The notes beneath the pieces are model-generated. The model was not told the origin of the DNA and searched no databases. It saw only the letters and a program-made list of their open reading frames with translations. A program made the position numbers and the translations under genes. A DNA stretch of 44,284 nt from Schleiferiaceae bacterium (GTDB lineage: Bacteria; Bacteroidota; Bacteroidia; Flavobacteriales; Schleiferiaceae): the NCBI GenBank assembly GCA_022424815.1, contig JAKMGS010000001.1, forward strand, positions 1 through 44,284, in the 5' to 3' direction. Shown here piece by piece: positions 837 through 35,197 of this stretch; position 1 is the first letter of the stretch, and every line of letters starts with the position of its first letter.

Positions 837-1511
837 TCAAGGAGTTGACAATGAAACCGGAATGATTTTTCCTCGCAATACCTGGCCTGCAGTGCTTGCA
901 AAGGTGTAGATAAAAGGACTCAGCTCTTCTGGTTGCAGCGGAGCTACATAACCAGGGAATGCTTCAGAAAGCATCTCGGTTTGGACAGCACCCAGAGCTA
1001 AAGTGTTGAAGGACCACTGGGAGGATTCTGCAAATTCCGCTTGAAAGCATTCCATAAGGACATTGATTGCACCTTTGGAAGAGGAATAATTGGTCAAACC
1101 GGGAAACTTCACACTGCCTTGTACACCCCCAACGGAGCTTATGGCAATCACATGAGCACGATCTGTAAGTTGAGAGAGGAGTCTTTGAGTCAACAAATAG
1201 GGGCCAAAAACATTTATGCCGTAGCAAAACTGTAAATCTTCTGCGGTCATATGGGCCATTGGTTTATTTACAAGAGCCCCTGCATTGTGAATGAGGACAT
1301 CAACTGGATCAGAAGGCAGGTTGGTTTGCATAGGATGTTGAAGATCGTAGGCGACCAATTCTAAATTGGACCCATATTCCTCCTTCAATTCAGAAAGAGG
1401 ATCAAGATTTCTTGTCAAAACAATGACCTTCCAATCCTTTTGTAAGAACTCCTTTACCGTGGCCAAACCGATGCCACGAGAGCCTCCAGTAATCCAAGCA
1501 ACCTGCTTCAT
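837..1511 (-). CDS. short-chain dehydrogenase/reductase (classical SDR)
   Basis: Contains TGGSRGIG (the TGxxxGxG motif), NAG and a S...YSSSK catalytic triad. I prefer the internal start MKQVAWITGG (ATG at 1511) to the ORF-track start at 1571, because 1542-1568 is the upstream terminator hairpin. Confidence 0.85.
   Translation of the reverse strand: MKQVAWITGGSRGIGLATVKEFLQKDWKVIVLTRNLDPLSELKEEYGSNLELVAYDLQHPMQTNLPSDPVDVLIHNAGALVNKPMAHMTAEDLQFCYGINVFGPYLLTQRLLSQLTDRAHVIAISSVGGVQGSVKFPGLTNYSSSKGAINVLMECFQAEFAESSQWSFNTLALGAVQTEMLSEAFPGYVAPLQPEELSPFIYTFASTAGQVLRGKIIPVSLSTP
1364..1373 (-). repeat. GGGTCCAATT motif copy (in SDR CDS, read as G-S-N)
   Basis: Exact 10-mer read directly. It is paired with GCGACCAATT at 1351-1360 as an inverted repeat. 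Confidence 0.9.
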
Positions 1512-1535
1512 GTTTTTGCGTATTATATATATGTA

Positions 1536-1568
1536 TACAAAAATGGCCCGAAACAAGTTCGGGCCATT
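1536..1568 (-). terminator. rho-independent terminator after the E2 gene
   Basis: An 11 bp perfect stem, AATGGCCCGAA (1542-1552) / TTCGGGCCATT (1558-1568), has a 5 nt loop and is followed on the minus strand by TTTTTG. Confidence 0.65.
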
Positions 1569-1595
1569 CAAATTTGGGGGAAAATTTTCGCCGGA

Positions 1596-2888
1596 TTATA
1601 CCAACATGGTCACCGGGTTTTCCAAATATGCTTTCAGTGATTGCAAGAATGCTGCTCCGCTCGCACCATCCACAACACGGTGGTCTAAACTCAAAGTCAC
1701 TTTCATGACGTTGCCAGGAAGAACTTGGCCATCCTTCACCACTGGAACTTGCTTGATACCGCCGACAGCAAGGATACCTGCATCTGGTGGGTTCACAATA
1801 GCAGTGAATTCTTCTATACCGAACATTCCTAGGTTAGAAATAGTAAAGGTGTTGCCTTCCCAATCTGCCGGTTGTAGCTTCTTGTCCTTTGCTTTTCCAG
1901 CAAGGTCTTTCACGCTCGCAGAGATGTGAGAAAGGGCCATTTGATCTGCATGACGCAATACTGGCACCAACAATCCATCCTCAATGGCCACAGCCACACC
2001 GATGTGTACGTGATCATTTACTCGGATAAAGTCGCCCATCCATGAGCTGTTTACTGCCGGGTGCTTCTTCAAAGCCAAAGCTGTTGCTTTCACTACGAGG
2101 TCGTTGAAGCTGATTTTCACATCGCCCGATGCGTTCATCGCTTTGCGCGCCGCAATAGCGTTGTCCATATCGATGTCCATCGTCACATAGAAATGTGGCG
2201 CTGTGAATTTGCTTTCGCTCAAACGCTTCGCAATAACCTTGCGCATTTGGCTCACAGGGTAATCTGTGTAGTTCTCTACGCCGGCTGGAGCCGCTGGAGC
2301 TGAAGCTGCTGCTGCCGCGCCTGGCTGAGTCGAAGTATGGAATTCAGGATTGAATGAATCTACATCGCGCTTCACTATCCGACCGTGATCGCCCGAACCT
2401 TGAACCATGTTCAGGTCGATGCCGCGATCTGCCGCTAACTTGCGGGCAAGAGGTGATGCTTTCACGCTGCCATCCGTAGCTACTTGTGCCGCGTGAGCAG
2501 GAGCAGGTGCTGCAGCGGGTGTCGCCGCTGGAGCAGGAGCAGGAGTAGCTGCTGGTGCAGGAACGGCTGCCGGGGCTGGAGCTTCTTCTGCTGGAGCCAC
2601 TGCAGGAGCAGCATCGCCAGCCTTCAAAGCTTCTATATCCTCACCTTCATCTCCTAGGATAGCCAATACGGTATCCACCGGAGCAGTTTCGCCTTCGCCA
2701 GTTCCGATATATAGGAGTTTGCCCTCTTGGCCTGGGAATGCTTCAAATTCCATGGTGGCTTTGTCGGTTTCAATTTCCGCCAACAAGTCGCCTTCATTTA
2801 CTGTGTCGCCAATTTTCTTGTGCCATTTCGCCACAACCCCTTCGGTCATGGTATCTGACAATCTTGGCATGTTAATTACTATCGCCAT
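1596..2888 (-). CDS. pdhC: dihydrolipoamide acetyltransferase (E2) of the pyruvate dehydrogenase complex
   Basis: Has a lipoyl domain (EIETDKATMEFE), Ala/Pro-rich linkers, a subunit-binding domain (ASPLARKLAADRGIDL) and the catalytic motif DHRVVDG. Confidence 0.9.
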   Translation of the reverse strand: MAIVINMPRLSDTMTEGVVAKWHKKIGDTVNEGDLLAEIETDKATMEFEAFPGQEGKLLYIGTGEGETAPVDTVLAILGDEGEDIEALKAGDAAPAVAPAEEAPAPAAVPAPAATPAPAPAATPAAAPAPAHAAQVATDGSVKASPLARKLAADRGIDLNMVQGSGDHGRIVKRDVDSFNPEFHTSTQPGAAAAASAPAAPAGVENYTDYPVSQMRKVIAKRLSESKFTAPHFYVTMDIDMDNAIAARKAMNASGDVKISFNDLVVKATALALKKHPAVNSSWMGDFIRVNDHVHIGVAVAIEDGLLVPVLRHADQMALSHISASVKDLAGKAKDKKLQPADWEGNTFTISNLGMFGIEEFTAIVNPPDAGILAVGGIKQVPVVKDGQVLPGNVMKVTLSLDHRVVDGASGAAFLQSLKAYLENPVTMLV

Positions 2889-2899
2889 GTTCTCTTGTA

Positions 2900-3895: not shown

Positions 3896-3919
3896 TTGTC
3901 GTCGATGTGTTTTGAGCGA

Positions 3920-3949
3920 CAAATTTAACGCAAAACCCCACCTAGCAAA
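3920..3949 (-). promoter_or_regulatory. candidate pdhA promoter (TTTG-N18-TAAATTTG)
   Basis: On the minus strand, TTTG (3949-3946) and TAAATTTG (3927-3920) lie about 25 nt upstream of ATG 3895. Confidence 0.5.
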
Positions 3950-3970
3950 ACAAGATGTGCTTTAAGTTGA

Positions 3971-3989: not shown

Positions 3990-4019
3990 GTGAATTTTGA
4001 AAGAATCGGAAAATTCCCC

Positions 4020-5183
4020 TTACTGCGCTAAGAATCCGTCAATATTGAAGGCCATGGAGAAACGAAGGGTGTTTTCCAGTGGCGAACGCGTGGTTGGACT
4101 GGCCGGAATGAGGTAGGCCATGTCGATCGTGAAGACGTTGTATTGAAGGCCGAATCCCATCGTCACGTATTGGCGGTTCCCCTTGAGTTTGTGCTCGTGG
4201 AGGTAGCCGGTACGAGCAAACAGGAAGTTGTCGTACTTGTATTCCAAACCGAAGTTATAGATGTTCTCCTGAAGCAACTCATCGAATCCACCTGGTTTCG
4301 CTGCTGGGTTGAAGCTCTGGAACACGCCCATCAATGGCGTAACATTATCATCCATACCGGCAACGATTTCACCATTAGTCCCTAATTCTGGGGGTGTAGG
4401 AACGACGAGACGGTTTAAATCTAAATAGACGGACATTTGGTTGTATTGGTCAATTTCCAAGTGGTATCCCCCACCGATGCGCAAATTCGTCGGCAAGAAG
4501 TCACTGTTTCCACTTTCGGAATAGGCGATTTTGGCACCCAAGTTTGTCAAGGCAATACCCGCAGACCAAGCCTGACGACGGCCACCTTTGATATTGTTAT
4601 AATCACTTTGATAATAAAATCCGAGGTCGGCCGCACCACTTTGGCCCGGTTTGGTTTGAAGACCCTGTACTACTTGGCCCTGTGCGATATCCGAATAGAT
4701 CCAACGCAATGCCGTTCCCGCGCTCCAATGATCGCTGAGCTTCAGGGCATAGGCTACATCGAGGTAGAATTCATAGGGATTGAAGGTACCCATTGAGTTT
4801 CCTTGCTCGTTAGTGAAGTTGATTTCCCCCAATGAGAAGTATCGCAACGAAGCGCTGATGCCTTGACGGTCGCTCAACGCTTTGGTGTAGTTTACGTAAG
4901 CTAGGTCGATATCTGGGACCAATTTCGACATCCACGGTGTGTACGACATCGCCATCGAAGCTTTCTTATTCTCCAAAAATGCCAATTTCGCCGGGTTCCA
5001 GGCACTTGAGTTGCCGTCCGGTGTACTCGCTACACCCACATCTCCCATGGCACCAGCTCGTGAATCTGGACTCACCAAGAGAATAGGTACTGCAGTGGTT
5101 ACCACATTGTATTTAAGGTTGCTTTGCGCTTTCGATTGGAAGGCAAATACTAATGCTAAGGAGAGGAATGCGAGTTTCTTCAT
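4020..5183 (-). CDS. porV: type IX secretion system outer-membrane protein PorV (LptO)
   Basis: Has a signal peptide and the characteristic N-terminus TTAVPILLVSPDSRAGAMGDVGVA. It has a beta-barrel-like alternating pattern and lies directly downstream of porU, as in Flavobacterium. Confidence 0.85.
   Translation of the reverse strand: MKKLAFLSLALVFAFQSKAQSNLKYNVVTTAVPILLVSPDSRAGAMGDVGVASTPDGNSSAWNPAKLAFLENKKASMAMSYTPWMSKLVPDIDLAYVNYTKALSDRQGISASLRYFSLGEINFTNEQGNSMGTFNPYEFYLDVAYALKLSDHWSAGTALRWIYSDIAQGQVVQGLQTKPGQSGAADLGFYYQSDYNNIKGGRRQAWSAGIALTNLGAKIAYSESGNSDFLPTNLRIGGGYHLEIDQYNQMSVYLDLNRLVVPTPPELGTNGEIVAGMDDNVTPLMGVFQSFNPAAKPGGFDELLQENIYNFGLEYKYDNFLFARTGYLHEHKLKGNRQYVTMGFGLQYNVFTIDMAYLIPASPTTRSPLENTLRFSMAFNIDGFLAQ
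4915..4924 (+). repeat. GGGACCAATT motif copy (in porV, antisense; sense reads L-V-P)
   Basis: Exact 10-mer read directly. Confidence 0.9.
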
Positions 5184-5213
5184 AGTTGGGTTAACGCTTG
5201 TCGCAGCGCAAGT

Positions 5214-8200
5214 TTAACGTATATATATGAGCTTTTCTTGTATTGCGGCAGATTTTCCGTCAACATTTCGGGTGAATTGGACCCTAATATGGTAAAAACC
5301 AGGACCTGGGCGCCCACCTTCAATTTCCGACATTTTAAAGCTAGGCAACGAGGTCTCCGATCCTATAAGGGTTAGGCTTTCCTCCTTGTGCCATAAAATT
5401 CGGCCTTCGTTATTGAATAGGTCCATAATGAGAATTCCGCCTTCCCCACTCTCGTCGTGGCTCAGGTTGAAGTTCACCTCATCGAGGAAGGGATTTGGAT
5501 AGGCAAGTAATTGGTTTAACACCGGCTTCTCGGAATCCACCACCACGAAGGCTATGCTGTCGTAGCCCCATTGATTGAGTACGTCCCAAGCGCGCAACTC
5601 CAAGGTGTGCTCGCCGTACTCGAGGTCGTAATAAGGATAGGTGATCTTGCCGCGCGTGAAATCGTCAATGGCGCTCTGATAATAGTCGTTAACGTTAACC
5701 GGTTGCCCGTCCAAGATGAGGCTTAGGTTGTGCCCAATTCCCAATCCAACCGCATTAATACCACTCTCATCGTACAAGAATCCTAGGGCTGTAGGATCGG
5801 GATCGCTGAAGCCGCCGGACACGAAATTCGTATCATTAATGTATAGGTGCACTTCCGGTCCTTCAGTATCGGTAATCACCCCGTCGTACACACCGCCGAT
5901 CAAATGTTGACGAGAGGCGCCCCAGAAATCTCTTTCGAAATTCGTCGCATAGGCGGCAATCTTCGGGGGACCGACACTCAGGTTGATGTCCAAGGGCACG
6001 CGGAATTCAAAGGTGAATGTTCCATTGACCACCGTCGCTTGCCCCTTGAACACCGCGTTGTTTTGGGTGGTGAAGTTGAAGGCGCCGCCTCGGTTGTCGT
6101 TCGTTTTGGTTTGCACGTTTTGGACCTTGTCGTAGAACTGGAGCCATACGCGACCGTTGATGTTAGTGAGGGTTTGGCCGTTATCGTCGCGAATGCTTCC
6201 TTTGATTTGGACCCAATTCAATGCTTTAATTGTATCGCTAAATTGATCCCACGCGACCCCATTAATAGAGTCGAAAACCAATCCGTCTTCCGGCCTTGCC
6301 AGCGGCAGCGCAGCATCTCCCATGAGCGAGAATTTAATTTTATCACCGCTGATGTTGTTGTTCTTTGTTGTGCGAATCACATCTCCCAAGCGGGGTTGGT
6401 CGAGGAATAGCATATTTCTGTTGAGCAACTCGTTGAGTTGGTAGGTGCTGTTCGTGGCGAAAACGCTTCTTGTGGTCGAAAACAGTGCGATGGCACCGCC
6501 GTTTGGGTTGAGGTGAAGTTGTTCTGCAGCGCTCACTCGGTTTGGATCGTCGAATCTGGCAAATTCACAGGTGATGGTGGTAAATACCGGCAGGGTGGTT
6601 TGATTCTCCCACGTGTTGATGTCCTCGAGTTGCAATATGCGCTCTGTGGCCCAGCCTACCTCTCCCCCATGGCCGACATAGCTCACCAGGAGCGCCCCAT
6701 TTTCTACCTCGCGGAAGAGTTTTTTACGTGCTTCAGGATAGCGCTGCGATCCGGGCATGCTTTCTTGCAAGAAGGCGTCAGCATAAATCTTGATGTTATT
6801 GAGTTCGGTGCGTATGGTGTCCAATTCCTTGGTTAATCGGTCCTGTACTACTTCAAATTCTTTTTCCCAACCGTCGTCTACATCATCCGCCACCCACAAA
6901 GCGTTCATGCGCCATGGACCAAAGCGCTCCGTAGCCGTGAGGTAATGTTCGATTTTGGCCACCGCTTGTTCGGCTTGTTGAACAGTACGAACTGGGATCC
7001 TACCTATACCGATATCGAGATCATCCAAAAACCAATTCACGCTTTCATCGGCGTCCAGGTAACCGTAGTAATCATCGGTAATGTAGGAGCTATAGAGGGA
7101 AAAACTAGCCTTGGAGTGGTAGGTAGGAATGAGGTTGGATTTTGGACCCGATAATTGGCCTTTATAATCGTAGGATGCATCTCCTAAGAGGGTCAGGTAT
7201 TGCAGTTTTTCGGAGTCGTTAAATAATCGAACCAAGAACTTTCGAATAGCACCGATATCAGGGTTTCCGGTGTTCATTACATCATATATATACTCCAATG
7301 CAACTACCTCCGCGTCGATGCCCGTCGCTCGCTCTACATCCGCCAAATCATGAGCGGCACCGAGCAAGGAATCTGGAGCGATGATGATGCTTTGCGCATT
7401 GCCGAGATCAGGGTAGGTGGCTGTTGAACTGTTGTTTAAATCAACCACCTCATCCACTACATATCCGATCGACCCTACCCCAAATTTGTAAGTGCGTATT
7501 TTGTCCTCGTGTGAGTACCATCGAGCTTCGTTGGCACCCGTAATTATGGGCACAACCTTGGAAACGATACGGTTATTTTCTATTCCGAAAATGGTCAGAT
7601 CTGCACTGGCCTCGGTGGTAAAATAGGAGTAGCTATCTGCGCTTCTTGGAGCGTTAACCATGAATTTGTTGGGGCTCTGTTTTTCAGAGGATGTTTCCCA
7701 GTCCACCACCACTTCATCCAACCACATGGCAGCGGCATTATTTCCCGCCTTGTCATAGATAATCCGTAAGGTTGAACCTTGGTCTGCGGTGAACGTAGCC
7801 GTGAGGACTTTTTCTTGGACAAAGTTGCTCACGCTCCCGGTCATCACTGCTGGGAAATTTATTTGGACGGTTTGATTACCATATTCTATCCGCAGCTTGG
7901 TGTTGCTCGTACTTGCGCGGGCTACTGCTCTGATCTGGACATTGATATCCGTTCCGAGAATAGGACTGTTTTCGGAGTTGCTTTTCCCGACCGTTCTTTG
8001 GCGGAAATCATAATCTCGTTGCGTTGTGAAATCGAATAATTCTCCCATCCATCGACGACCTGTACCGACCAAATTATACATGGCGGTATCGTAGACCCAA
8101 GTGGCACGTGCGTTCAAGAATCGGGCATTAGAATCTGCCTGTTCTTGTTCCAAAGGAATGGGCTGGTATGAGGTATTTCCTCCGCTCACCAAGAAGTACT

Positions 8201-8633
8201 TCGCATCGGAATAGGCATTATCCGAATAATTCGATGCTTCGGTTGAAGGACTGTAGGTTAGATCATAGCTCGGTGGTATGTAAAACCAGTAGATGGTGCT
8301 TGCCGAAAGGGTGGTTTCATTTACATCGTAAGGGATAGAGAAATCACCGGCCATGGGCTCGTTGGAGCTGTTCATTGGGAGTAGTGCGCCCTCTAATCGG
8401 CAACGAATCTCCAATTCCTCTGTAGGATCCCCGGCTGTTAGAATGCCTAAATCTATAATCTCGCTACCGGTTAATTTATACAGCCCGCTGTGTTGGTCTT
8501 CTGCTCCGTTGAGGGCAGAAATCCGGTGGTTTAGCGTTTTGAATCGGACATAGGTACCCTCATCAAAGGACATCTGCGCCACCACGAGTACCGGACTTAA
8601 ACACACGTATAATAAGAGTACAATTCTTTTCAC
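5214..8633 (-). CDS. porU: type IX secretion C-terminal signal peptidase PorU (gingipain/C25-like)
   Basis: Contains C25-like motifs: LLGDASYDYKG, the His block SYVGHGGEVGW and the Cys block FTTITCEFARFD. Start taken at the in-frame GTG 8633, which gives the signal peptide KRIVLLLYVCLSPVLVVAQ. The ORF-track start at 8768 would overlap the divergent neighbour. Confidence 0.8.
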   Translation of the reverse strand: MKRIVLLLYVCLSPVLVVAQMSFDEGTYVRFKTLNHRISALNGAEDQHSGLYKLTGSEIIDLGILTAGDPTEELEIRCRLEGALLPMNSSNEPMAGDFSIPYDVNETTLSASTIYWFYIPPSYDLTYSPSTEASNYSDNAYSDAKYFLVSGGNTSYQPIPLEQEQADSNARFLNARATWVYDTAMYNLVGTGRRWMGELFDFTTQRDYDFRQRTVGKSNSENSPILGTDINVQIRAVARASTSNTKLRIEYGNQTVQINFPAVMTGSVSNFVQEKVLTATFTADQGSTLRIIYDKAGNNAAAMWLDEVVVDWETSSEKQSPNKFMVNAPRSADSYSYFTTEASADLTIFGIENNRIVSKVVPIITGANEARWYSHEDKIRTYKFGVGSIGYVVDEVVDLNNSSTATYPDLGNAQSIIIAPDSLLGAAHDLADVERATGIDAEVVALEYIYDVMNTGNPDIGAIRKFLVRLFNDSEKLQYLTLLGDASYDYKGQLSGPKSNLIPTYHSKASFSLYSSYITDDYYGYLDADESVNWFLDDLDIGIGRIPVRTVQQAEQAVAKIEHYLTATERFGPWRMNALWVADDVDDGWEKEFEVVQDRLTKELDTIRTELNNIKIYADAFLQESMPGSQRYPEARKKLFREVENGALLVSYVGHGGEVGWATERILQLEDINTWENQTTLPVFTTITCEFARFDDPNRVSAAEQLHLNPNGGAIALFSTTRSVFATNSTYQLNELLNRNMLFLDQPRLGDVIRTTKNNNISGDKIKFSLMGDAALPLARPEDGLVFDSINGVAWDQFSDTIKALNWVQIKGSIRDDNGQTLTNINGRVWLQFYDKVQNVQTKTNDNRGGAFNFTTQNNAVFKGQATVVNGTFTFEFRVPLDINLSVGPPKIAAYATNFERDFWGASRQHLIGGVYDGVITDTEGPEVHLYINDTNFVSGGFSDPDPTALGFLYDESGINAVGLGIGHNLSLILDGQPVNVNDYYQSAIDDFTRGKITYPYYDLEYGEHTLELRAWDVLNQWGYDSIAFVVVDSEKPVLNQLLAYPNPFLDEVNFNLSHDESGEGGILIMDLFNNEGRILWHKEESLTLIGSETSLPSFKMSEIEGGRPGPGFYHIRVQFTRNVDGKSAAIQEKLIYIR
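5275..5284 (-). repeat. GGGTCCAATT motif copy (in porU, read as V-Q-F)
   Basis: Exact 10-mer read directly. Confidence 0.9.
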
Positions 8634-8758
8634 TTCCACAAATCTACTGCGCAATACATAACAAATGCCGGATAAAAAGCGTTTAAACAGGAACGAAAAG
8701 CAAGTGCAAATCGTACTTTTTTTGCTTATACTTGTTGCTTGAAAACATAGGTTTATCA

Positions 8759-9745
8759 ATGAACGCATTGAAATCGCGCATACTCACAGTGGCTATTACA
8801 CTGACAGCCAGCACCTTAAGCTTTGCTCAAGATGCTCACTTCAGTCAATATTACGCCAATCCTATCTACCTAAATCCGGCATTTGCGGGTCTAGAAAGAT
8901 GTCCTACAGTCCATACTAATTACCGAAATCAGTATCCTGAGCTCGGAGTATACCAGACTTATTCTGCCTCCTACGATCAATACGTAGACAAATTAAATGG
9001 TGGAGTAGCCGTAATGGCGCTGCGTGATGATGCAGGAAATGGCGCACTAAATCTGACCGAAGTCAGTGGAGTATATAGCTACCATTTAGAAGTAAACCGC
9101 AAGTTTACCTTATTGAGTGGTTTCCAAGCCACATTCCGTCAACGCACATTGGATTGGGGACAGTTTACATTCCCAGATATGATTGATCCGTTCTACGGCT
9201 TTGTTTTGCCCACGAATGAAATTGCGCCAGGTAACAATTATAACAATCACTTAGACCTGAGCTTCGGTATGCTAGGCTTTACTGAGCGTTGGTACATTGG
9301 TGTAGTGGGTCATCATTTGACCGAACCGAACGAAGCATTCTTGAGCCAGAGCCGTTTACCATTTAAACTTACTGCACATGCTGGGGCTAATCTTCCTCTC
9401 GGCCGTAAGCGACTGCACAATAGTTTACAATCTTACCTCGTTCCTAATATAGTATACCAACAACAAGGACCTGCATCTCAGTTGACTGCTGGTTTGAGTT
9501 TTGCTCGTGGACCTTTGGCAGGAGGTTTAGCTCTCCGTCAAGGAAGCTTCAACCCGGATGCTGTGATTTTCATTTTGGGAATCACCCCGCCTGACCTTCC
9601 CTGGACTTTTGGTTATAGCTATGATTACACCATTAGTGATCTAACCAATACACTAGGTGGTGCTCATGAAGTCAGCCTGGGCTACAAATTCCCATGCCGC
9701 ACACGTAAAAGCAAAATGAAACCTCTTAAGTGTCCTAAATTCTAA
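8759..9745 (+). CDS. PorP/SprF-family type IX secretion membrane protein
   Basis: Has a signal peptide followed by AQDAHFSQYYANPIYLNPAFAG, the PorP/SprF signature N-terminus. ATG at 8759 is preferred over TTG at 8732. Confidence 0.8.
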   Translation: MNALKSRILTVAITLTASTLSFAQDAHFSQYYANPIYLNPAFAGLERCPTVHTNYRNQYPELGVYQTYSASYDQYVDKLNGGVAVMALRDDAGNGALNLTEVSGVYSYHLEVNRKFTLLSGFQATFRQRTLDWGQFTFPDMIDPFYGFVLPTNEIAPGNNYNNHLDLSFGMLGFTERWYIGVVGHHLTEPNEAFLSQSRLPFKLTAHAGANLPLGRKRLHNSLQSYLVPNIVYQQQGPASQLTAGLSFARGPLAGGLALRQGSFNPDAVIFILGITPPDLPWTFGYSYDYTISDLTNTLGGAHEVSLGYKFPCRTRKSKMKPLKCPKF

Positions 9746-9767
9746 CCAAGACGAAACATTAAATAGT

Positions 9768-11498
9768 ATGAATACCTTCGTAAAGTTTTCAATCGCCACT
9801 GTTGCGCTTGCTCTTCTTGCAAGTTGTGCAGGACCAGAATCTAATACTACTGGTTGGGCTATTAACAACAAAAAGAATGGTGGCTTTCAAGCAAACTTGA
9901 ACTACAAGGGCCAAGAAACTGGACCTGGTTTAGTGTTCATTGAAGGTGGTACATTCACCATGGGTCAGGTTGAAGAAGATTTTATCAAAGATTGGAACAA
10001 CATACCTCGCCAGATGACGGTGAGTTCATTCTACATGGATGAGAATGAAGTAACGAATCTGGATTATAGAGAGTATTTGTATTGGCTCGAAAGAGTGTAT
10101 AAAGAAGAATACCCACGGGTATTTGAAACTGCACTACCGGATACGTTAGTTTGGCGAGATAAGTTAGCATACAACGATAATTACGTTGAAAATTACTTGC
10201 GTCACCCCGCGTATAATTACTATCCAGTGGTTGGTGTAAGTTGGCTACAAGCACAACGTTACTGTTCTTGGAGAACTGATCGTGTCAATGAGGCCATTTT
10301 AATTGAAAAAGGCATTCTGAGCATCAATGAAAATCCTTATGGTCCAGATCATTTCAATACAGAAGTTTACCTTTATAGAGAAGGTGAATATTCTGTCCAA
10401 AACAAAAAGGGACTTAAAGATTTAAACCCCATGGGATATGGAAAAGATGGACGTCCAGCCCGAATTGAAGACGGTATTCTATTGCCAAAATATCGCTTAC
10501 CGACGGAAGCAGAATGGGAATACGCAGCCTATGCAGATGGTGGTCGCCGCATCTATAACACGGTAGTAGATAAAAACAAGTACAGCTGGAATGGTAATGA
10601 AACACGCAACTACAACAAACAGGAACGTGGTGATATTCTTGCCAACTTTAAACGTGGAAGAGGAGATAACATGGGTACATCTGGATGGCTCAATGACCAA
10701 GCCGATATCACCATTCAAGTACGTTTTTATCCGCCAAATGATTTTGGATTATACGATATGGCGGGTAATGCAGCGGAGTGGGTGCTAGACGTTTACCGTC
10801 CTCTATCATCAACCGATGTTACTGACTTCCGAGGATTTCGTGGGAATGAATTTCAAACCTTTGATAAGAATTGGGACAACAGTGGTGGACTCGTTATCTT
10901 GGATGACGTTCAGTATGACACCATCAACGGTGTAGGTGTTCCAGTACGTCTTCCAGGGCAACTTCCTATGAGGGATGTGACTGCCGATGATGTTGTCAGT
11001 AAAGATAGAACCTTTCCTACACGTCGCAACTACAGCCAAAGTGATTACCGTGATTATCTCGATGGTGATGTCCAAAGCTCTACCGACTATGATGCGGGTG
11101 GAGATTTTGATAATCAGACTACTCTAGATTTTCCAGAGGATAGTGATAGTTTAGGTTTTCCTAGTGATAGTGCATCATTTGCTTTTGAAGATAGCACTGA
11201 ATTTGATGATCTGTCAATGTCTTCACCAATTGATTTTGGGACTTCACCTGCTATGTACGACTACCAAAACACTTCTTTGATTAACAACACAACACGTGTT
11301 TACAAAGGAGGAAGCTGGAAAGACCGTGCGTATTGGTTAAGCCCAGGGACACGTCGATTCTTAGAAGAAGATCAAAGTACTGATTACATTGGGTTTAGAT
11401 GTGCAATGGATCGTGTTGGATTCCAGAATCTCGACGATTCTCGCAACAAGCGTCCTGGGAAAGTCAAACGACACAACTTCAAGCGTTACAAAATGTAA
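9768..11498 (+). CDS. gldJ: gliding motility lipoprotein GldJ (FGE/sulfatase-modifying-factor-like fold)
   Basis: Has a lipoprotein signal (LLASC). TGWAINNKKNGGFQ...QETGPGLVFIEGGTFTMG and RVYKGGSW...GFRC match GldJ. The conserved gldJ-murF synteny is present. Confidence 0.85.
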   Translation: MNTFVKFSIATVALALLASCAGPESNTTGWAINNKKNGGFQANLNYKGQETGPGLVFIEGGTFTMGQVEEDFIKDWNNIPRQMTVSSFYMDENEVTNLDYREYLYWLERVYKEEYPRVFETALPDTLVWRDKLAYNDNYVENYLRHPAYNYYPVVGVSWLQAQRYCSWRTDRVNEAILIEKGILSINENPYGPDHFNTEVYLYREGEYSVQNKKGLKDLNPMGYGKDGRPARIEDGILLPKYRLPTEAEWEYAAYADGGRRIYNTVVDKNKYSWNGNETRNYNKQERGDILANFKRGRGDNMGTSGWLNDQADITIQVRFYPPNDFGLYDMAGNAAEWVLDVYRPLSSTDVTDFRGFRGNEFQTFDKNWDNSGGLVILDDVQYDTINGVGVPVRLPGQLPMRDVTADDVVSKDRTFPTRRNYSQSDYRDYLDGDVQSSTDYDAGGDFDNQTTLDFPEDSDSLGFPSDSASFAFEDSTEFDDLSMSSPIDFGTSPAMYDYQNTSLINNTTRVYKGGSWKDRAYWLSPGTRRFLEEDQSTDYIGFRCAMDRVGFQNLDDSRNKRPGKVKRHNFKRYKM

Positions 11499-23015: not shown

Positions 23016-23038
23016 GGGTTTCCAAATAAATTGGACCC
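23016..23038 (-). promoter_or_regulatory. near-palindromic element GGGTCCAATTTATTTGGAAACCC, 7 nt upstream of the comM-like ATG
   Basis: The minus strand reads GGGTCCAATT-TATT-TGGAAACCC. It is nearly identical to the element at 31371-31396 upstream of radC. Confidence 0.5.
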
Positions 23039-25008: not shown

Positions 25009-25713
25009 TTATGCGTTTAAAATAATTGGGACCAATTCTTCCAAATGGGCAATCTCAAAAGTCAATTTCTCGTGGTGAGGCACCTGCTTAGGGTTGAAAT
25101 AGACCTGGTCAATGCCCTGCTCCCTCGCCCCAACGCAATCCGCAATGAGGTTATCACCGATCATCAAACTCTCCTTGCGCTCAGCACCGGTGAGCCGGAG
25201 GGCGCGGCGGAAAATCTTTGGATCCGGCTTGTTTACCCCCACTTGGTCACTGCAGAGCAACAAATCAAAAAGCGGCTCGAGACCACTTTCGGCAAATTTG
25301 ATGTTTTGACTTTCGTGAAAACCATTGGTTATGACATGTAAAACACAGCCTGCTGCTTTTAGTTCTTGCAATACCTCAGCGGCACTTTCAATCAAGTGGT
25401 TTTGATAGGGCGTTTCCTTAATGTAGCGGAGTTCCATCTCCCAGGCCACATCCTTAGCGCTCACCCCAAAATGCTCGAAAGTTTCGCGAAATCTAGTTTC
25501 ACGAAGGGTTTGCTTATCAATGGCCCCGGCGCGGTACAGATCCCATTTCAGGTCATTGATGGTGATGTATTTATCGAAGAACTGCTCGAAACTGGGTAAC
25601 CCTAAACCCGGCAATCCTAAATCTGCATAGAGGTTGCGCAGGGACATTTCAGAGTTTTTCTCGAAGTCCCAAAGGGTATGATCCCAATCAAAGAAGAGGT
25701 GTTTGTATTTCAC
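25009..25713 (-). CDS. HAD-superfamily hydrolase (YjjG-like nucleotidase/phosphatase)
   Basis: HAD motif I FFDWDHTLWDF, motif II ITNG and motif IV GDNLIADCVGA are present. I prefer GTG 25713, which forms a GTGA overlap with the upstream stop and puts DxD near the N-terminus. The alternative is ATG at 25752. Confidence 0.75.
   Translation of the reverse strand: MKYKHLFFDWDHTLWDFEKNSEMSLRNLYADLGLPGLGLPSFEQFFDKYITINDLKWDLYRAGAIDKQTLRETRFRETFEHFGVSAKDVAWEMELRYIKETPYQNHLIESAAEVLQELKAAGCVLHVITNGFHESQNIKFAESGLEPLFDLLLCSDQVGVNKPDPKIFRRALRLTGAERKESLMIGDNLIADCVGAREQGIDQVYFNPKQVPHHEKLTFEIAHLEELVPIILNA
25028..25037 (+). repeat. GGGACCAATT motif copy (in the HAD gene 3' end, antisense; sense reads L-V-P)
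   Basis: Exact 10-mer read directly. It is embedded in AATTGG-GA-CCAATT. Confidence 0.9.
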
Positions 25714-26642
25714 GAACGTGTGGTTTTGGGTTTTCGCCAACGCAGGTACCAAGGCAGGTTATTCTCTACGTGGAAATAGAAAGGTTCATCATGGGCGCCA
25801 AAGCCGCTGTAGAAGCGCGCCAATCCAGGAATGCTACTTCCTTCAAAATCCAATATATGGTCAGAGCCTGCGTGAAGGTGAATCATTTGATCGATGAGTA
25901 AGGTCGGTGCGCCACATTCTTTGCCGTAGCTCGAACTGGCGTTGAGCAAGAGGGTGGAACGACCATGGAATTGGACCCAAATCTGACCAGCAACCAGAGT
26001 ATTTCCCTCATCATATACGGCCAGCAGTACGCCTCTTTTCTGGTACAAGCAAAACTCCAAGACCTTGGCTAAACTATCGATGTTTTCAGCGGTAATAGCG
26101 GTCTTGTCCTGGGTATTGTGCTTCCATAAGCGCACGACATCTTGAGTAGTAGCCCATTGCGCAGATTCCAAGGAACTCTTTTGTGCCTTTTTCAGGTTGC
26201 GCTTGGTCTGCGCACTATATCCAGTGGCTAATTCCTCATACGAGGCCTTGGTGGACAAAATAAAATTTGAATACTTCTCAGGGGTCCAATGGGACGGGAA
26301 AGCCACGCCGGGTGAAAGAAAGAATTCCCCGTAGGCAAAATGTTTCATCGCTTCCTCCATCAACGCTTCTACCCACTGTGAGGACAACGGAATGGTCGAA
26401 TACGGGCCTACAGCCTGTGTCCCATAAGGACGCGTGGTAAAAGAAATGCCGTTTTTCTCTCTTGGAAACAACGGAAAAACCACTTCGTAATCCCCATAAA
26501 TAAGCGCATCCCAGGTTGGGGCTACCCAATTCAGGTACCAGCTAAATCCATAAGGTTGCGGATGTGCTGTGGCAGCCACACATCGATCCCAACGTTCGAA
26601 ATCGATCTCGGCATGTGGAATGTACTTAAGGTTTGGCCGCAT
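25710..26642 (-). CDS. FemAB-like / BioF2-like GNAT acyl(aminoacyl)transferase family protein
   Basis: The N-terminus EIDFERWDRCV...YGFSWYLNWVAPTWDALIYGDYEVVFPL resembles the FemAB-related GNAT proteins of polysaccharide loci. Start taken at MRPNLKY (26642). The assignment rests on motif memory only. Confidence 0.5.
   Translation of the reverse strand: MRPNLKYIPHAEIDFERWDRCVAATAHPQPYGFSWYLNWVAPTWDALIYGDYEVVFPLFPREKNGISFTTRPYGTQAVGPYSTIPLSSQWVEALMEEAMKHFAYGEFFLSPGVAFPSHWTPEKYSNFILSTKASYEELATGYSAQTKRNLKKAQKSSLESAQWATTQDVVRLWKHNTQDKTAITAENIDSLAKVLEFCLYQKRGVLLAVYDEGNTLVAGQIWVQFHGRSTLLLNASSSYGKECGAPTLLIDQMIHLHAGSDHILDFEGSSIPGLARFYSGFGAHDEPFYFHVENNLPWYLRWRKPKTTRS
25969..25978 (-). repeat. GGGTCCAATT motif copy (in the FemAB-like gene, read as V-Q-F)
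   Basis: Exact 10-mer read directly. Confidence 0.9.
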
Positions 26643-30716: not shown

Positions 30717-31351
30717 TACAACAATCCTTGATCTGAAAAGCTAAAGTAGCCACTACGCGCCACAATTAAGTGGTCCAAGAGCTTGATATCTAAAGTATCT
30801 GCCGCGGCACTCAACTTTCTTGTCATGCGTTTGTCATTTTCACTGGGAGCCAAGGCCCCACTGGGGTGATTGTGGGCCACGATGATGGCGGTAGCATTCC
30901 AATGCAAGGCGCGTTTGAGGATAAGCCGAACGTCGGTCAAGGTACCCGTTAAGCCGCCTTTGAATAGTTGGTGACAGGCCAGCGGCGCATGGGCTCTATT
31001 GAGGTAGAGGACGTGGAATTCTTCGTGGGCTGGGAATTCGAGGTGCTTAAAGTGGGCGTAGGCATCTTGGCTTTTCCGGATGGCGTGCTCCATAGGCTTG
31101 GGGGTGCTCCAGGCTTGGTGTAGTGCGAGTACGGCCATGATTTGCTTCGCTTTTTTGGGGCCAATTCCCTTAATCTCCCGCAGCGCATCTTCGTCCATCT
31201 GCAGGATCCGATTAAAGTCGAGAAAATACTCGTTCAACGCTTGCTCCAGCTCTTCCACACTTTGGTAGCGTGCCCCACCGTTGAGGATGTAGCTCATGAG
31301 TTTGGCCGTAGACCATTGCTGGGTCGTTTCATAAAAGGATTGTTTTTCCAT
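30716..31351 (-). CDS. radC: RadC-family JAB-domain protein (UPF0758)
   Basis: Has an N-terminal helix-hairpin-helix (EIKGIGPKKAKQIMAV) and the JAMM motif HNHPSGALAPSENDKRMT. Confidence 0.9.
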   Translation of the reverse strand: MEKQSFYETTQQWSTAKLMSYILNGGARYQSVEELEQALNEYFLDFNRILQMDEDALREIKGIGPKKAKQIMAVLALHQAWSTPKPMEHAIRKSQDAYAHFKHLEFPAHEEFHVLYLNRAHAPLACHQLFKGGLTGTLTDVRLILKRALHWNATAIIVAHNHPSGALAPSENDKRMTRKLSAAADTLDIKLLDHLIVARSGYFSFSDQGLL

Positions 31352-31370: not shown

Positions 31371-31396
31371 GGGTTTCTAATAAATTAATTGGACCC
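31371..31396 (-). promoter_or_regulatory. near-palindromic element GGGTCCAATTAATTTATTAGAAACCC in the radC / glycosyltransferase divergent spacer
   Basis: The plus strand reads GGGTTTCTAATAAATTAATTGGACCC, against GGGTTTCCAAATAAATTGGACCC at 23016-23038. It lies 19 nt upstream of the radC ATG and 25-50 nt upstream of the GT GTG start. Confidence 0.5.
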
Positions 31397-31420: not shown

Positions 31421-32500
31421 GTGAAGATTGCTGTTCTAGGATCAAGAGGAATTCCCAACCGCTACGGCGGCTTCGAAGAGATGGCTGCCCAAGTCGCCCC
31501 ACTGTGGGTCAAGGCGGGCCATGAGGTCGTCGTCTACACTACCAGCGACCATCCCGATAAGGTGGAAGAAGTGGCCGGCGCGCGCATCAAGTACATATTC
31601 AATCCCGAGAGCACTTTCGGACTCGCGGGCCAATTCATCTACGACCTGCTCTGCATCCTCGACGCACGACGCGAAGGTTTTGACATTTACTTGCAGCTGG
31701 GCTACACCACTTCAGGCATCTGGTCCTTCCTGTGGCCGAAGAAAAAAACCATGACCAACATGGACGGGTTGGAACACCAAAGGGCCAAATACAAGGGTCC
31801 GTTGTCGATATTCTTGCGATGGTCGGAGCGCAGGGCGGCCAAACGTTCACAACTTTTAGTTGCTGACAACCCGGAGATCGCCCGCTACCTCGCCAAATAC
31901 AACAAGCCTACCCAAACCATCGCCTACGGCAGCCACGTGGTGGAGGCGTCCGAAAACGCCGCGCAGATCTTACAGGAAGCCGGCCTTCCGACCCACAACT
32001 TCCACGTTAATATTGGCCGTATACAACCAGATAACCACGTTTGGGAGATTCTTGCGGCCGCGGAAGAAAGCGGTGAAACTGTAGTGGCTATTGGAGACTA
32101 TAGCACGAGGTATGGACGGAAGCTGCGCAAAATTTTCGATGCGAAGAACCTCCATTTCCCTGGGACTATTTACGATAAAACGGTCTTGAATGCCCTGCGC
32201 ACTCAAGCGGTGTTTTACCTACATGGACACAGTGTAGGCGGTACCAACCCTGCATTGCTTGAGGCAATGGGATGTGGCGCCATGGTCTTGGCACACAACA
32301 ATCCTTTTAACGCGAGTGTCTTGGGAGGGCTGGGCGCCTTATGGTCGGATGAAGAAGAACTCAAGGAATTATTGAAGCAGCGTCCCTCAGCCGACGTGAA
32401 GGCAGAACAAGCTGAAATCTCTAAGGGGCGGGTGAAGGACTATTTTAATTGGTCCCAGATCGCAAATCAGTACCTCGAGGCCATGGCCGGCCTACAATAA
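31421..32500 (+). CDS. GT4-family glycosyltransferase with a DUF1972-type N-terminus
   Basis: MKIAVLGSRGIPNRYGGFEEMA is the DUF1972 signature, and the C-terminal GT1/GT4 block is GHSVGGTNPALLEAMGCG. It has a GTG start. Confidence 0.8.
   Translation: MKIAVLGSRGIPNRYGGFEEMAAQVAPLWVKAGHEVVVYTTSDHPDKVEEVAGARIKYIFNPESTFGLAGQFIYDLLCILDARREGFDIYLQLGYTTSGIWSFLWPKKKTMTNMDGLEHQRAKYKGPLSIFLRWSERRAAKRSQLLVADNPEIARYLAKYNKPTQTIAYGSHVVEASENAAQILQEAGLPTHNFHVNIGRIQPDNHVWEILAAAEESGETVVAIGDYSTRYGRKLRKIFDAKNLHFPGTIYDKTVLNALRTQAVFYLHGHSVGGTNPALLEAMGCGAMVLAHNNPFNASVLGGLGALWSDEEELKELLKQRPSADVKAEQAEISKGRVKDYFNWSQIANQYLEAMAGLQ
32447..32456 (-). repeat. GGGACCAATT motif copy (in the glycosyltransferase gene, antisense; sense reads N-W-S)
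   Basis: Exact 10-mer read directly. Confidence 0.9.
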
Positions 32501-32529
32501 AAAAAGCCCCACCAAAACTGGCAGGGCTT
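32498..32529 (-). terminator. probable terminator for queA, between convergent genes
   Basis: On the minus strand, AGCCC-TG-CCA GTTT TGG-TG-GGGCT forms a hairpin followed by T7 (plus-strand A-run 32499-32505). Confidence 0.55.
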
Positions 32530-32550
32530 CCTCAAATAAATCTTAACGGA

Positions 32551-33606: not shown

Positions 33607-33642
33607 AGCTTACGGGCTTTGAAATTTATAATAAGAAAAGTA

Positions 33643-33674
33643 CAAAGGTACGATTTCGGCACCCCCCTTGTCAA
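33643..33674 (-). promoter_or_regulatory. candidate queA promoter (TTG-N21-TACCTTTG)
   Basis: On the minus strand, TACCTTTG (33650-33643) lies about 37 nt upstream of the ATG, with TTG at 33674-33672. Confidence 0.4.
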
Positions 33675-33773
33675 GTTTTTAATAAACCAATTGACTTTGA
33701 ACCTTACAGTTCCGACATTTGTTATATCTACCCGCCACGGAATTGGTTCCTAAAACTTTTTAGCGCAAAAACA

Positions 33774-34496
33774 ATGGGAGTTAATCTACTCGAAAAGCTT
33801 AGTGATATCCGCGCGAAAAACGCGCAACCCTCGAACACAGAAGTGTTGGAAGGTTTCAAGGCCCTGCTGAACCAACCCAATGAAGGCGAACGTATTCTGC
33901 GTAACCTTTTTAAGTCTGATGGTAGCGAGGAGCACTTGGACTTTGATACATTGGAGGTCAATCGCATTTATCACATTGAGGACATCAAAAAACTGTGTAT
34001 TGATTACCGTTTAAGGTTCTTGGACTCTAAACACTTCAACGGCACCTTCCCTTCGGAAGCCATTGACGCCATCAAAGATTTCGAGGCCAAGCAAGGCAAA
34101 GAAATCAAAGGTTTTAAAATGATTGCACCGGCGGGGATGTTCAAGCTGGCTGAAAAAGACAAAGATCCTATCCTAATGGTACCTATGGGCAACGGTTATT
34201 ACTACCAGCTCGCCCAGTGGGGCAATGATCTACATTTTTTGCGCAAAATCTTGGTTTATCCGTTCCGAAATTTCGAAACGATCATGAAAACCGTATTTGT
34301 ATTTTCCGCACTCACGGCACTATTGTTCCCAGAGAGTATGATGCGCGGTCCTAAAGATACCGGTACCATAATGCACATTCGTGTGATTTTCTTCTTCTGG
34401 ATGGTCTTCGCCACGAGCGCCATGACGGCCTTGTACGGCTTCAGCCGCGTGAAGAATTTCAGTTCAAATTTATGGAAGAGCCGTTTCCTAGACTAG
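33774..34496 (+). CDS. hypothetical membrane protein (soluble N-domain plus two C-terminal TM helices)
   Basis: Coding-like ORF with hydrophobic segments VFVFSALTALLF and VIFFFWMVFATSAMTALYGF. I recognise no family motif. Confidence 0.55.
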   Translation: MGVNLLEKLSDIRAKNAQPSNTEVLEGFKALLNQPNEGERILRNLFKSDGSEEHLDFDTLEVNRIYHIEDIKKLCIDYRLRFLDSKHFNGTFPSEAIDAIKDFEAKQGKEIKGFKMIAPAGMFKLAEKDKDPILMVPMGNGYYYQLAQWGNDLHFLRKILVYPFRNFETIMKTVFVFSALTALLFPESMMRGPKDTGTIMHIRVIFFFWMVFATSAMTALYGFSRVKNFSSNLWKSRFLD

Positions 34497-35197
34497 GCGG
34501 AAGCGACTTCATCGAAAAAATATTGGGCCCACTCGTTGGGCCCTTTTCCGTTTGAGGCTTCGTAGGGTCCAATTTTAGTACGCCGTAACCCTACCAAATG
34601 TCCTCCACTATTCAAAGCTTTGCCAATATCATGAGCCAAGGAACGGATGTACGTGCCCTTGCTGCAGAGGACTCGCAGTTCTAATAATTGGTCCGTATAA
34701 CTAAGAATTTCTAATTCATGAATGACCACTTGACGCGGCGCCATAATTATTTCCTCACCCGCACGAGCCTTTTCGTAGGCACGAACGCCGTCCTTCTTGA
34801 TGGCAGAAAAGATCGGCGGCACTTGTGAAATCTCACCGGTAAACGCTTTCAGCGCCTCCTCTATGGTTTCTTGATTGATATGATCCGTTGGAAATTCTGC
34901 ATCGATAGCACTCTCCAAATCATAGGATGGCGTCGTTGCACCAAGCTTCACTTGTGCCACATATTCCTTAGGCAGCCCCATGAAATCTGAAATCTCCTTG
35001 GTCTTCTTTCCCACACAAATAATGAGTAGGCCTGTGGCCAACGGATCTAGGGTTCCAGCATGACCCACTTTTAGCTTTTTCTTTCCGGTGACTTTTTGAA
35101 GGGCGTACTTGATTTTAGCGACCGCGTGATAGCTCGTCCACTCTAAAGGCTTATCGACCAATAGCACTTGGCCAGAAACGATATCCTCTACGGTCAA
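34493..35197 (-). CDS. truB: tRNA pseudouridine(55) synthase
   Basis: Contains LLVDKPLEWTS and the catalytic block GHAGTLDPLATGLL. The probable start is TTG at 35197, forming a TTGA overlap with the uppP stop. The longer ORF-track N-terminus overlaps uppP by about 100 nt. Confidence 0.85.
   Translation of the reverse strand: MTVEDIVSGQVLLVDKPLEWTSYHAVAKIKYALQKVTGKKKLKVGHAGTLDPLATGLLIICVGKKTKEISDFMGLPKEYVAQVKLGATTPSYDLESAIDAEFPTDHINQETIEEALKAFTGEISQVPPIFSAIKKDGVRAYEKARAGEEIIMAPRQVVIHELEILSYTDQLLELRVLCSKGTYIRSLAHDIGKALNSGGHLVGLRRTKIGPYEASNGKGPNEWAQYFFDEVASA
34565..34574 (+). repeat. GGGTCCAATT motif copy (in truB, antisense; sense reads I-G-P)
   Basis: Exact 10-mer read directly. Confidence 0.9.

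Follow-up and report, generated by a model that had tools for sequence, protein, structure and literature searches.

A lineage-restricted 10-mer, GGGWCCAATT, over-represented and conserved in one clade of marine Schleiferiaceae: a candidate DNA uptake signal

Introduction

Only for two families, both proteobacterial, are sequence-specific tags for the recognition of self DNA well established, and no uptake signal is known in Bacteroidota. The systems closest to the element described here are the USS of the Pasteurellaceae (AAGTGCGGT core) and the DUS of the Neisseriaceae (GCCGTCTGAA, with dialects). In cyanobacteria, a role of HIP1 (GCGATCGC) as a self-recognition tag is now debated; its function was long unclear and is now linked to transformation, which it is proposed to enhance in a methylation-dependent manner (bioRxiv 10.64898/2026.06.24.733823). 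Within the Flavobacteriales, natural competence with a preference for own DNA is described for Riemerella columbina, with no signal defined for it (PMC7965970), and this makes an uptake signal plausible in the order.

Here I describe the 10-mer GGGWCCAATT in a 44.3-kb stretch of chromosomal DNA from a Schleiferiaceae bacterium (Flavobacteriales), hereafter the window, in flanking sequence and in related contigs. The word was first noticed in a sequence-only reading of the window.

Results

Abundance of GGGWCCAATT

A string search of both strands returned 11 exact copies of GGGWCCAATT per 44.3 kb (Table 1), reproducing every coordinate and strand of the sequence-only reading, as well as its count of 11 for the 8-mer GGGTCCAA. 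Dinucleotide shuffles of the window contain a mean of 0.27 copies and a maximum of 3, and Markov models derived from the window's own words predict 0.32 (order 3), 0.27 (order 4) and 0.55 (order 5), so that the proposed enrichment also stands in the window against models of 4th and 5th order. In 100 order-3 Markov simulations, the commonest 10-mer of any sort reached just 4–5 copies, compared with 7 for GGGTCCAATT alone, and the excess therefore withstands the look-elsewhere effect. One-mismatch copies number 14, bringing the total with at most one mismatch to 25, against 6.9 in shuffles, and the exact copies outnumber the excess of one-off copies. Such near-matches had been reported before, but only eight of them: those starting at 1351, 3254, 6205, 6241, 14410 and 20716 were overlooked, and one placed at 6827 really starts at 6817. 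The over-representation of the word is thus real.

Spacing between copies is random, and the interval 34.6–44.3 kb, previously noted as motif-free, is a gap and nothing more, the following 9.75 kb of genome carrying 2 more copies. In all, 19.7 kb of new flanking sequence holds 4 further copies, giving 15 in about 64 kb of a single genomic neighbourhood, or ~0.24/kb. Fold enrichment grows with word length, from 2.5–5.5-fold for 8-mers to 25–43-fold for 10-mers, with ~35-fold for the complete word. Sub-words such as GGWCC are not enriched; GGWCC in fact falls slightly short of expectation (observed/expected 0.79), evidence against a simple effect of a GGWCC methylase or of very-short-patch (VSP) repair.

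Table 1. Exact copies and selected variants of GGGWCCAATT in the window, with their state in related contigs.
Element	Position	Strand	Context	Related contigs
One mismatch	1351–1360	+	Inside CDS; imperfect inverted pair with 1364–1373 (-), 3 nt between	
Exact, GGGTCCAATT	1364–1373	-	SDR gene (837–1511, -), sense, G-S-N	
Exact, GGGACCAATT	4915–4924	+	porV (4020–5183, -), antisense, L-V-P	
Exact, GGGTCCAATT	5275–5284	-	porU/C25 peptidase gene, sense, stop 61 nt further on, V-Q-F	
Exact, GGGTCCAATT	14150–14159	+	anmK, sense, start 115 nt before, V-Q-F	
Exact, GGGTCCAATT	23029–23038	-	Intergenic, same orientation as comM/yifB, start 20 nt downstream; flanked by TTTG and TTTATTTG (-7-like) elements	Invariant in 5
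Exact, GGGACCAATT	24331–24340	+	Pirin gene, antisense, L-V-P	Invariant in 5 in-clade contigs; GGAGTCAATT or GGGGCCAATT in outgroups
Exact, GGGACCAATT	25028–25037	+	HAD hydrolase gene, antisense, stop 19 nt further on, L-V-P	Lost in L086
Exact, GGGTCCAATT	25969–25978	-	Hypothetical 310-aa gene, sense, V-Q-F	Lost in L084, L096
One mismatch, GGGTCCAATG	26282–26291	+	Example of the 14 one-mismatch copies	TGGTCC or TAGTCC in relatives; window/L082 lineage thus nearer to motif
Variant GGGGCCAATT, containing GGGCCAATT	31157–31166	+		Conserved in L008, L082, L084
Exact, GGGTCCAATT	31387–31396	-	Intergenic, divergent radC/glycosyltransferase spacer, radC 35 nt downstream	Invariant in 4 in-clade contigs; absent from outgroups
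Second GGGCCAATT	31627–31635	+		
Exact, GGGACCAATT	32447–32456	-	GT4 glycosyltransferase gene, antisense, stop 44 nt further on, N-W-S	Conserved in L008, L082, L084, L085
Exact, GGGTCCAATT	34565–34574	+	truB, antisense, stop 72 nt further on, I-G-P	Kept in L008, L084; lost in L082, L085

Placement and flanks

Nine of the 11 copies lie within CDSs, in nine different and unrelated genes, and the other two are intergenic, though non-coding DNA makes up only 5% of the window. The coding copies occupy several reading frames, two of them favoured, and the peptides first read across the nine CDSs (V-Q-F and L-V-P three times each, the others once) were all recovered. Flank preferences are weak, consisting of T-rich sequence at -5 to -1 and C at +1. 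No terminator-type inverted pairs were found, the sole pair (1351/1364) being imperfect and located within a CDS.

The mean distance to a gene boundary is 109 nt for the copies, compared with 322 nt for random positions (P = 6e-4), and some copies sit at convergent gene ends. The preference for gene ends is weaker at sites in the extension, with boundary distances of 270, 370 and 923 nt. USS and DUS have been reported at poorly conserved positions (PMC2817400), and the occurrence of GGGWCCAATT at gene ends and in non-coding DNA fits this placement. As regards competence, the DNA analysed shows only homologues of comM and radC, both of them widespread.

One possibility raised by this distribution is that the copies bind an abundant protein, nucleoid-associated or a global regulator, that acts near gene boundaries. 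The boundary preference is consistent with it, as are the two copies that precede the start codons of comM and radC by 20–35 nt. These had both been described as lying in promoter spacers; both are indeed intergenic, but only the comM copy falls between Bacteroidota-type -33 and -7-like elements. However, 9 of 11 copies are inside CDSs, some at convergent gene ends, the word hardly varies and is not degenerate, and the boundary preference weakens in the new sequence. Regulator sites are also rarely created by multiple amino-acid-changing substitutions, unlike the copy gained at 12100 in contig L101 (see below). I consider this explanation unlikely.

The weak flanks, the occurrence on both strands, and the spread over two spacers and nine unrelated CDSs with several reading frames used rule out a protein motif, paralogy or a mobile repeat, in agreement with what had been proposed. 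A MITE/REP-type repeat is likewise rejected, given flanks without repeat-like conserved sequence, 9 of 11 copies in CDSs and an origin by substitution. CCAATT-type hexamers are common words of this genome, which could suggest an artefact of chance, composition or codon usage, or else remnants of a mobile repeat. Against this, order 3–5 Markov models predict only 0.3–0.55 copies where 11 are found, simulated 10-mers never exceeded 5, and the excess is replicated by the newly added sequence and by independent assemblies. The several frames, the Markov excess and the conserved silent sites described below also uphold the earlier view that neither codons nor peptides drive the word. With both strands and the weak flanks added, these results refute the artefact and repeat readings, which I regard as practically certain to be wrong.

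Orientation

Across the 15 copies, six are on the plus strand and nine on the minus strand. With the leading strand deduced from a negative GC skew and from the minus-strand 16S gene, 9 of the 15 are on the presumed leading strand, for which P = 0.85 against 50%, P = 0.15 against a 75% skew, P = 0.017 against 85% and P = 0.002 against 90% co-orientation with replication. The balanced orientation first described as unlike KOPS is therefore confirmed, a co-orientation of 85% being rejected, and KOPS-type polarity is ruled out. The same statement had been made for Chi, which the 75% comparison excludes less firmly than was implied.

It is in fact conceivable that the word is a Chi-like recombination hotspot, recognised by the RecBCD or AddAB of this lineage, with its enrichment in core DNA serving the protection and repair of self DNA. 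In E. coli, Chi is found about once every 4 kb, which equals the density seen here, and GGGWCCAATT is not a palindrome, is specific to its lineage and is conserved; a leading-strand skew of 75% is also compatible with the observed orientation. This orientation is, however, fully compatible with 50:50. Known Chi sites are 5–8 nt long, whereas enrichment here builds up to the full 10-mer, and a 10-mer at such a density needs far stronger enrichment (~35-fold) than a word of that length. A Chi-like function thus appears rather unlikely.

Conservation and origin among relatives

In contigs that are 81–96% identical to the window, GGGWCCAATT is kept at orthologous places. In relatives of ~70% identity, in other Schleiferiaceae and in 1.5 Mb of other Flavobacteriia it is no more frequent than by chance, and it is confined to one genus-level clade of uncultured marine Schleiferiaceae.

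Across the related contigs, motif bases show a mismatch rate of 1.4%, compared with 11% for random background 10-mers (P = 5e-5). At third codon positions the rate is 5.1% within the motif and 25.7% in the background (P = 1.6e-6), and counted by site, 3 of 16 positions in the motif vary, the background figure being 53% (P = 0.005). The low mismatch, third codon positions included, indicates that the word is held at the DNA level. Whatever its function, these data show that silent sites of housekeeping genes are constrained independently of the encoded proteins.

This constraint recalls HIP1, with its orthologous-site conservation and methylase recognition. GGGWCCAATT could thus be a methylation-linked motif of the HIP1 type, the word, or its GGWCC or AATT sub-site in context, being the target of a methyltransferase, and methylated copies marking self DNA or regulating repair, replication or transformation. 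Two palindromic sub-sites of restriction-modification type, GGWCC and AATT, are embedded in it. The 10-mer itself, however, is not a palindrome (its reverse complement is AATTGGWCCC), only these inner parts being so, GGWCC alone is under-represented, and the ~64 kb of neighbourhood revealed no gene for a methyltransferase, which also counts against this possibility. I judge it to have a low probability, both for the methyltransferase target and for the roles of the methylated copies, but it overlaps with the uptake signal proposed below rather than excluding it.

Partial matches to the motif are found in outgroups at the same codons, pointing to an origin by substitution and not by insertion. 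A lineage-specific gain is seen at 12100 in L101, where AAGATCAGTT became GGGACCAATT and the peptide K-I-S became G-T-N, and another at 10924 in L100. Copies are thus shown to have arisen in situ by substitution, with gains and losses continuing. Related words, namely GGGSCCAATT and GGGCCAATT, are in addition over-abundant in sub-lineages, which for GGGCCAATT is that of L008/L084/L104; this pattern may be called dialect-like.

Gains by point substitution from near-matches, and the apparent conservation, would also be obtained if the copies had no function individually and were by-products of a bias in mutation or repair that depends on sequence, such as VSP-like mismatch correction turning near-cognate words into the cognate one, and the embedded methylase-type core is consistent with this. 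Known VSP systems, with contexts of 4–5 bp, would nonetheless be expected to enrich GGWCC, which shows no enrichment, and a repair context of 10 bp has no known precedent. I therefore hold this explanation to be very improbable.

Discussion

The word is restricted to one lineage and conserved at orthologous places, its copies arose by point substitution, and related variants accompany it. This genomic signature is best matched by what was suggested at the outset, a USS/DUS- or HIP1-like element or the site of an abundant DNA-binding or DNA-modifying protein, except that the lack of GGWCC enrichment argues against a simple GGWCC methylase. From this signature, I infer a protein that reads the word and a process of DNA uptake or recombination; the reader is most likely a sequence-specific DNA-binding protein. 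The reading I tentatively prefer, while it may well prove wrong, is that GGGWCCAATT marks the DNA of one genus-level Schleiferiaceae clade as self and acts as a DNA uptake signal. A competence-associated DNA receptor would prefer fragments bearing the word, and conspecific DNA with new or intact copies would be favoured both in uptake and in recombination. Copies would then accumulate by point substitution where protein function permits, in places such as permissive codons, gene ends and spacers, and, once accumulated, would be held in place.

A bolder version of the uptake-signal reading, on which I am more doubtful, is that this would be the first uptake signal in Bacteroidota, of recent origin in one uncultured marine/estuarine Schleiferiaceae genus, with GGGCCAATT and GGGSCCAATT as dialects and a receptor unrelated to the ComP/ComN pilins. 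If true, another phylum would be added to those with self-recognition tags, through a tag that is young and limited to one genus of uncultured marine Flavobacteriales, and this tag would have been caught early in its build-up, as its low density, visible gains and variant words suggest. It would also imply that sequence-biased natural transformation shapes the genomes of abundant free-living marine Flavobacteriales. In practical terms, the word could serve as a sequence barcode for binning the clade and tracing gene flow into it, and a 10-bp DNA probe would be a concrete bait for the protein that reads it.

Comparison with known systems

KOPS/SRS and MITE/REP elements resemble GGGWCCAATT in being short repeated DNA elements scattered round chromosomes. 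More than 85% of KOPS/SRS copies run in the direction of replication, a level rejected for GGGWCCAATT (P = 0.017), while MITE/REP elements are longer, intergenic and structured, with conserved flanks, none of which applies to GGGWCCAATT. Chi shares with it an asymmetric, species-specific sequence, enrichment in core DNA and an occurrence of once per 4–5 kb, but is a word of 5–8 nt with modest enrichment and a leading-strand skew, in contrast to a 10-mer with ~35-fold enrichment and no demonstrable skew. HIP1 is similarly hyper-abundant, conserved beyond coding constraint and provided with methylase-type sub-sites; it is, however, an 8-bp perfect palindrome found phylum-wide at ~1 per kb, whereas GGGWCCAATT is a 10-bp asymmetric word of one genus-level clade.

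The likeness to USS and DUS is the most extensive. These are also short (9–12 nt), non-palindromic and vastly over-represented words, present in both orientations, in genes (in several frames) and in spacers, without repeat-like flanks. Each belongs to a particular lineage, has related variants, is conserved at orthologous places and sits at tolerant protein positions, and the weak AT-rich flank of GGGWCCAATT recalls that of USS. They differ in reaching hundreds to thousands of copies at ~1 per kb, GGGWCCAATT being four to five times less dense, and in forming inverted pairs that act as transcription terminators, for which GGGWCCAATT has no terminator-type counterpart. Competent cells bind and take up DNA bearing USS or DUS in preference to other DNA, and they have a cognate receptor and competence machinery (type IV pilus/ComP or ComN, ComEC, DprA). 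Finally, USS and DUS are proteobacterial, whereas GGGWCCAATT is a candidate signal in a host belonging to the Bacteroidota.

Abundance of GGGWCCAATT in the window

All 11 exact copies of GGGWCCAATT listed by the sequence-only reading were recovered by a direct search of the window, each at its coordinates and on its strand. Dinucleotide-preserving shuffles of the window give a mean of 0.27 copies and a maximum of 3, and Markov models built from the window's own words predict 0.32 (order 3), 0.27 (order 4) and 0.55 (order 5). The most frequent 10-mer in the window is GGGTCCAATT, with 7 copies, while the top 10-mer of any kind reached 4–5 copies in 100 order-3 Markov simulations; since no simulated 10-mer exceeded 5 copies, the excess survives the look-elsewhere effect. 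An artefact of composition or codon usage is ruled out: the expectations at Markov orders 0–6 and the simulations speak against it, and the copies are spread over several reading frames. Allowing up to one mismatch, I found 25 sites in the window vs 6.9 expected. Among the one-off copies listed previously, one position (6827) should read 6817, and six such copies had been missed.

Enrichment rises with word length, from ~1-fold for 5- and 6-mers to 2.5–5.5 for 8-mers, 7–14 for 9-mers and 25–43-fold for the two 10-mers, which identifies the whole 10-mer as the unit. The embedded GGWCC has an observed/expected ratio of 0.79 in the window. Because it is not enriched, a simple effect of a GGWCC methylase or of very-short-patch (VSP) repair is unlikely, and this ratio counts against the VSP type of repair bias as a rival origin of the word.

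The gene content is that of a Bacteroidota chromosome, with housekeeping genes that include murein genes, leuS, rlmN, truB, comM/yifB and radC, and with a type IX secretion gene cluster (4020–11498). An ORF at 229–627(+), overlapping the 16S rRNA gene, is probably spurious.

Type IX secretion genes and 16S rRNA gene of the window
Feature	Coordinates	Strand	Remark
porV	4020-5183	-	type IX secretion gene cluster; holds motif copy
porU/C25 peptidase	5214-8573	-	type IX secretion gene cluster; holds motif copy
porP/sprF	8759-9745	+	type IX secretion gene cluster
gldJ-like gene, FGE-sulfatase domain	9768-11498	+	type IX secretion gene cluster
16S rRNA gene, 5' 287 nt	1-288	-	runs off left end of window

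Distribution among relatives

The LeuRS locus groups the window with Schleiferiaceae (Flavobacteriales), the nearest genome being the MAG SFB_13D_100_21 (locus L008; 96% amino-acid and 84% nucleotide identity), and an ENA metagenome assembly holds contigs nearly identical to the window. The motif is found at orthologous positions, with occasional losses, in L008 and in the metagenome contigs L082–L086 and L096 (86–94% identical to the window). A rightward walk beyond the window added 19.7 kb of sequence belonging to the same clade; it contains 4 further copies, which brings the density to 0.24 per kb (15 copies in ~64 kb of one genomic neighbourhood). In this extension region, the motif is present in contigs at 96%, 84% and 82% identity, including NCBI assemblies GCA_964222665.1 and GCA_041236175.1, and has 0 copies in contigs at 71–73% identity. 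The motif has 1 copy in 97 kb of outgroup Schleiferiaceae (~69% identity), 0 in the 157 kb of seven further Schleiferiaceae loci, and 5 (vs ~3 expected) in the 1.5 Mb of 71 other Flavobacteriia and Bacteroidota loci. Counts outside the close relatives are therefore at chance level, and the enrichment is limited to one roughly genus-level clade.

A segment encoding a TonB-dependent receptor and a beta-helix protein (contig L097, 5641–9801) is also present in L102, L104, L106 and L107, and is missing from L101 (15390–15796). This accessory indel within the clade holds 0 GGGWCCAATT copies.

Position and orientation of the copies

Nine of the window copies fall within CDSs, each in a different and unrelated one, 4 in sense and 5 in antisense orientation. 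Their frames and peptides are as the sequence-only reading gave them, with a preference for two frames, V-Q-F and L-V-P (three copies each). Over 15 independent copies, the flanks are T-rich at -5 to -1 and have C at +1 in 9/15, and no repeat-like similarity among copies was found within ±25 nt. These weak base preferences rule out a longer hidden repeat or MITE. Together with the word excess and the unrelated CDSs, they exclude a protein motif, paralogy, a mobile repeat or composition as the source of the word; the first three had been discounted from the sequence alone, correctly so. No known RNA family or tRNA was found at the motif sites.

The sole two intergenic copies lie 20 nt upstream of comM (23029–23038) and 35 nt upstream of radC (31387–31396), each co-oriented with its gene, a placement that may be coincidental with two cases. 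Both comM and radC have homologues in the Haemophilus competence regulon. Bacteroidota-type -33 and -7-like elements flank the comM copy only. A longer element common to both (GGGTCCAATTWATTT...GAAACCC) was set aside, as it has two copies only, and no hairpin common to both was found.

The mean distance to a gene boundary is 109 nt for the window copies vs 322 nt for random positions (P = 6e-4), and the sites in flanking DNA lie at 97, 198, ~270, ~370 and 923 nt; placement near gene boundaries is a trend that is suggestive only. Intervals between copies are random (coefficient of variation 1.02), ruling out regular spacing. An imperfect inverted motif pair, GCGACCAATT-cta-AATTGGACCC, with 8/10 positions pairing, is found at 1351–1373; its location is inside the SDR gene's coding region rather than at a terminator.

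A minus-strand 16S gene and a negative GC skew point to the minus strand as the leading one, and this presumed leading strand carries 9/15 copies. Strong replication polarity of the KOPS/SRS type, which the earlier reading had doubted, is rejected (P = 0.017 at 85% co-orientation). A Chi-like site is a rival explanation with which the count is compatible, at a 75% leading-strand skew (P = 0.15); it is also compatible with a 50:50 ratio.

Gain and conservation of the copies

Outgroups have partial matches at orthologous positions, such as GGGGCCAATT, GGAGTCAATT and CGAACCAATT, which shows that the copies arose on the spot through substitutions and were not inserted. At position 12100 of contig L101, the sub-lineage L101/L100/L097 has GGGACCAATT, read G-T-N; the corresponding sequence in L104, L105 and the outgroup is AAGATCAGTT (K-I-S). 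Relative to L104/L105/L106 there are four substitutions in 10 nt, every one toward the motif. This gain is directional and amino-acid-changing, and lies in a small hypothetical protein. A second gain within the clade is found at L100 10924.

Mismatch within the clade is 1.4% at motif positions; the full set of 10-nt windows shows 11.1% (P = 5e-5 by resampling), and the ±30-nt flanks show 2.5–13.6%. At third codon positions mismatch is 5.1% inside the motif vs 25.7% (P = 1.6e-6), and in a site-level test 3/16 positions are variable vs 53% in the background (P = 0.005). The constraint, or continual restoration, thus acts on the DNA word itself and does not depend on the encoded proteins.

Related words

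The motif minus its central W, GGGCCAATT, is mildly enriched in the window lineage, with 4 copies in ~64 kb vs ~0.7 expected, and is also enriched, with ~9 distinct sites in ~51 kb vs ~0.8 expected in the sub-lineage L008/L084/L096/L104 (also L105), for example at window-equivalent positions 19551, 35660 and 36894. This word could represent a dialect, or else another specificity alongside the first. GGGSCCAATT and the palindromic AATTGGGCCCAATT occur too, and such variant words in sub-lineages resemble dialects, in small numbers. AATTGGGCCCAATT is a perfect 14-bp palindrome at L101 5639–5652 (also in L100), formed by two overlapping motif variants (GGGCCCAATT, both strands) inside the apolipoprotein N-acyltransferase gene, where L104 and L105 have AATTGGCCC.

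In five outgroup loci, GGCCAATT has 22 copies vs ~5.8 expected; the excess is partly due to orthologous, protein-constrained sites that enter the count more than once. The copies are not kept between L087 and L094 (87% identical), and the case for a dialect in outgroup genera is weak. The whole locus L090, from an outgroup genus, has 8 copies in 18.7 kb vs ~1.2 expected, 5/8 being TGGCCAATT, and the excess is smaller in L087 and L088; it may reflect an ancestral signal, a parallel signal or codon-pair usage.

Comparison with known systems

A lineage-specific hyper-abundant oligomer is a known kind of feature. The literature search for the 10-mer returned incidental primer or eukaryotic matches only, with no mention as a bacterial motif, and the literature searched describes no uptake sequence in Bacteroidota. 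New are the word GGGWCCAATT itself, the phylum in which it occurs and its state, which is one of low density and apparently young.

Among the possible mechanisms, an uptake-signal-like self tag appears the most likely, and I propose it tentatively. It is favoured by the match to the signature of the USS and DUS uptake signals, and by the example of Riemerella columbina, a naturally competent member of the Flavobacteriales that prefers its own DNA and has no defined signal (PMC7965970). Against it stand the motif density, lower than that of USS/DUS, and the absence of the terminator pairs that are a feature of these. Besides the Chi-like site and a repair bias, the rivals are a putative nucleoid or regulator binding site and a putative methylation-linked tag, which overlaps with the uptake-signal model.

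The likeness to USS/DUS, for which a signature of this kind has been described (PMC2817400), extends to an asymmetric core of 10 bp, weakly AT-rich in its flank and present in both orientations, and to copies that are mostly intragenic, in favoured frames and at tolerant positions. It also includes restriction to one lineage, retention at orthologous sites, gain by substitution and variant words in sub-lineages. The same signature, palindromy excepted, has been described for the cyanobacterial HIP1, which is now proposed to be a methylation-dependent uptake signal (bioRxiv 10.64898/2026.06.24.733823).
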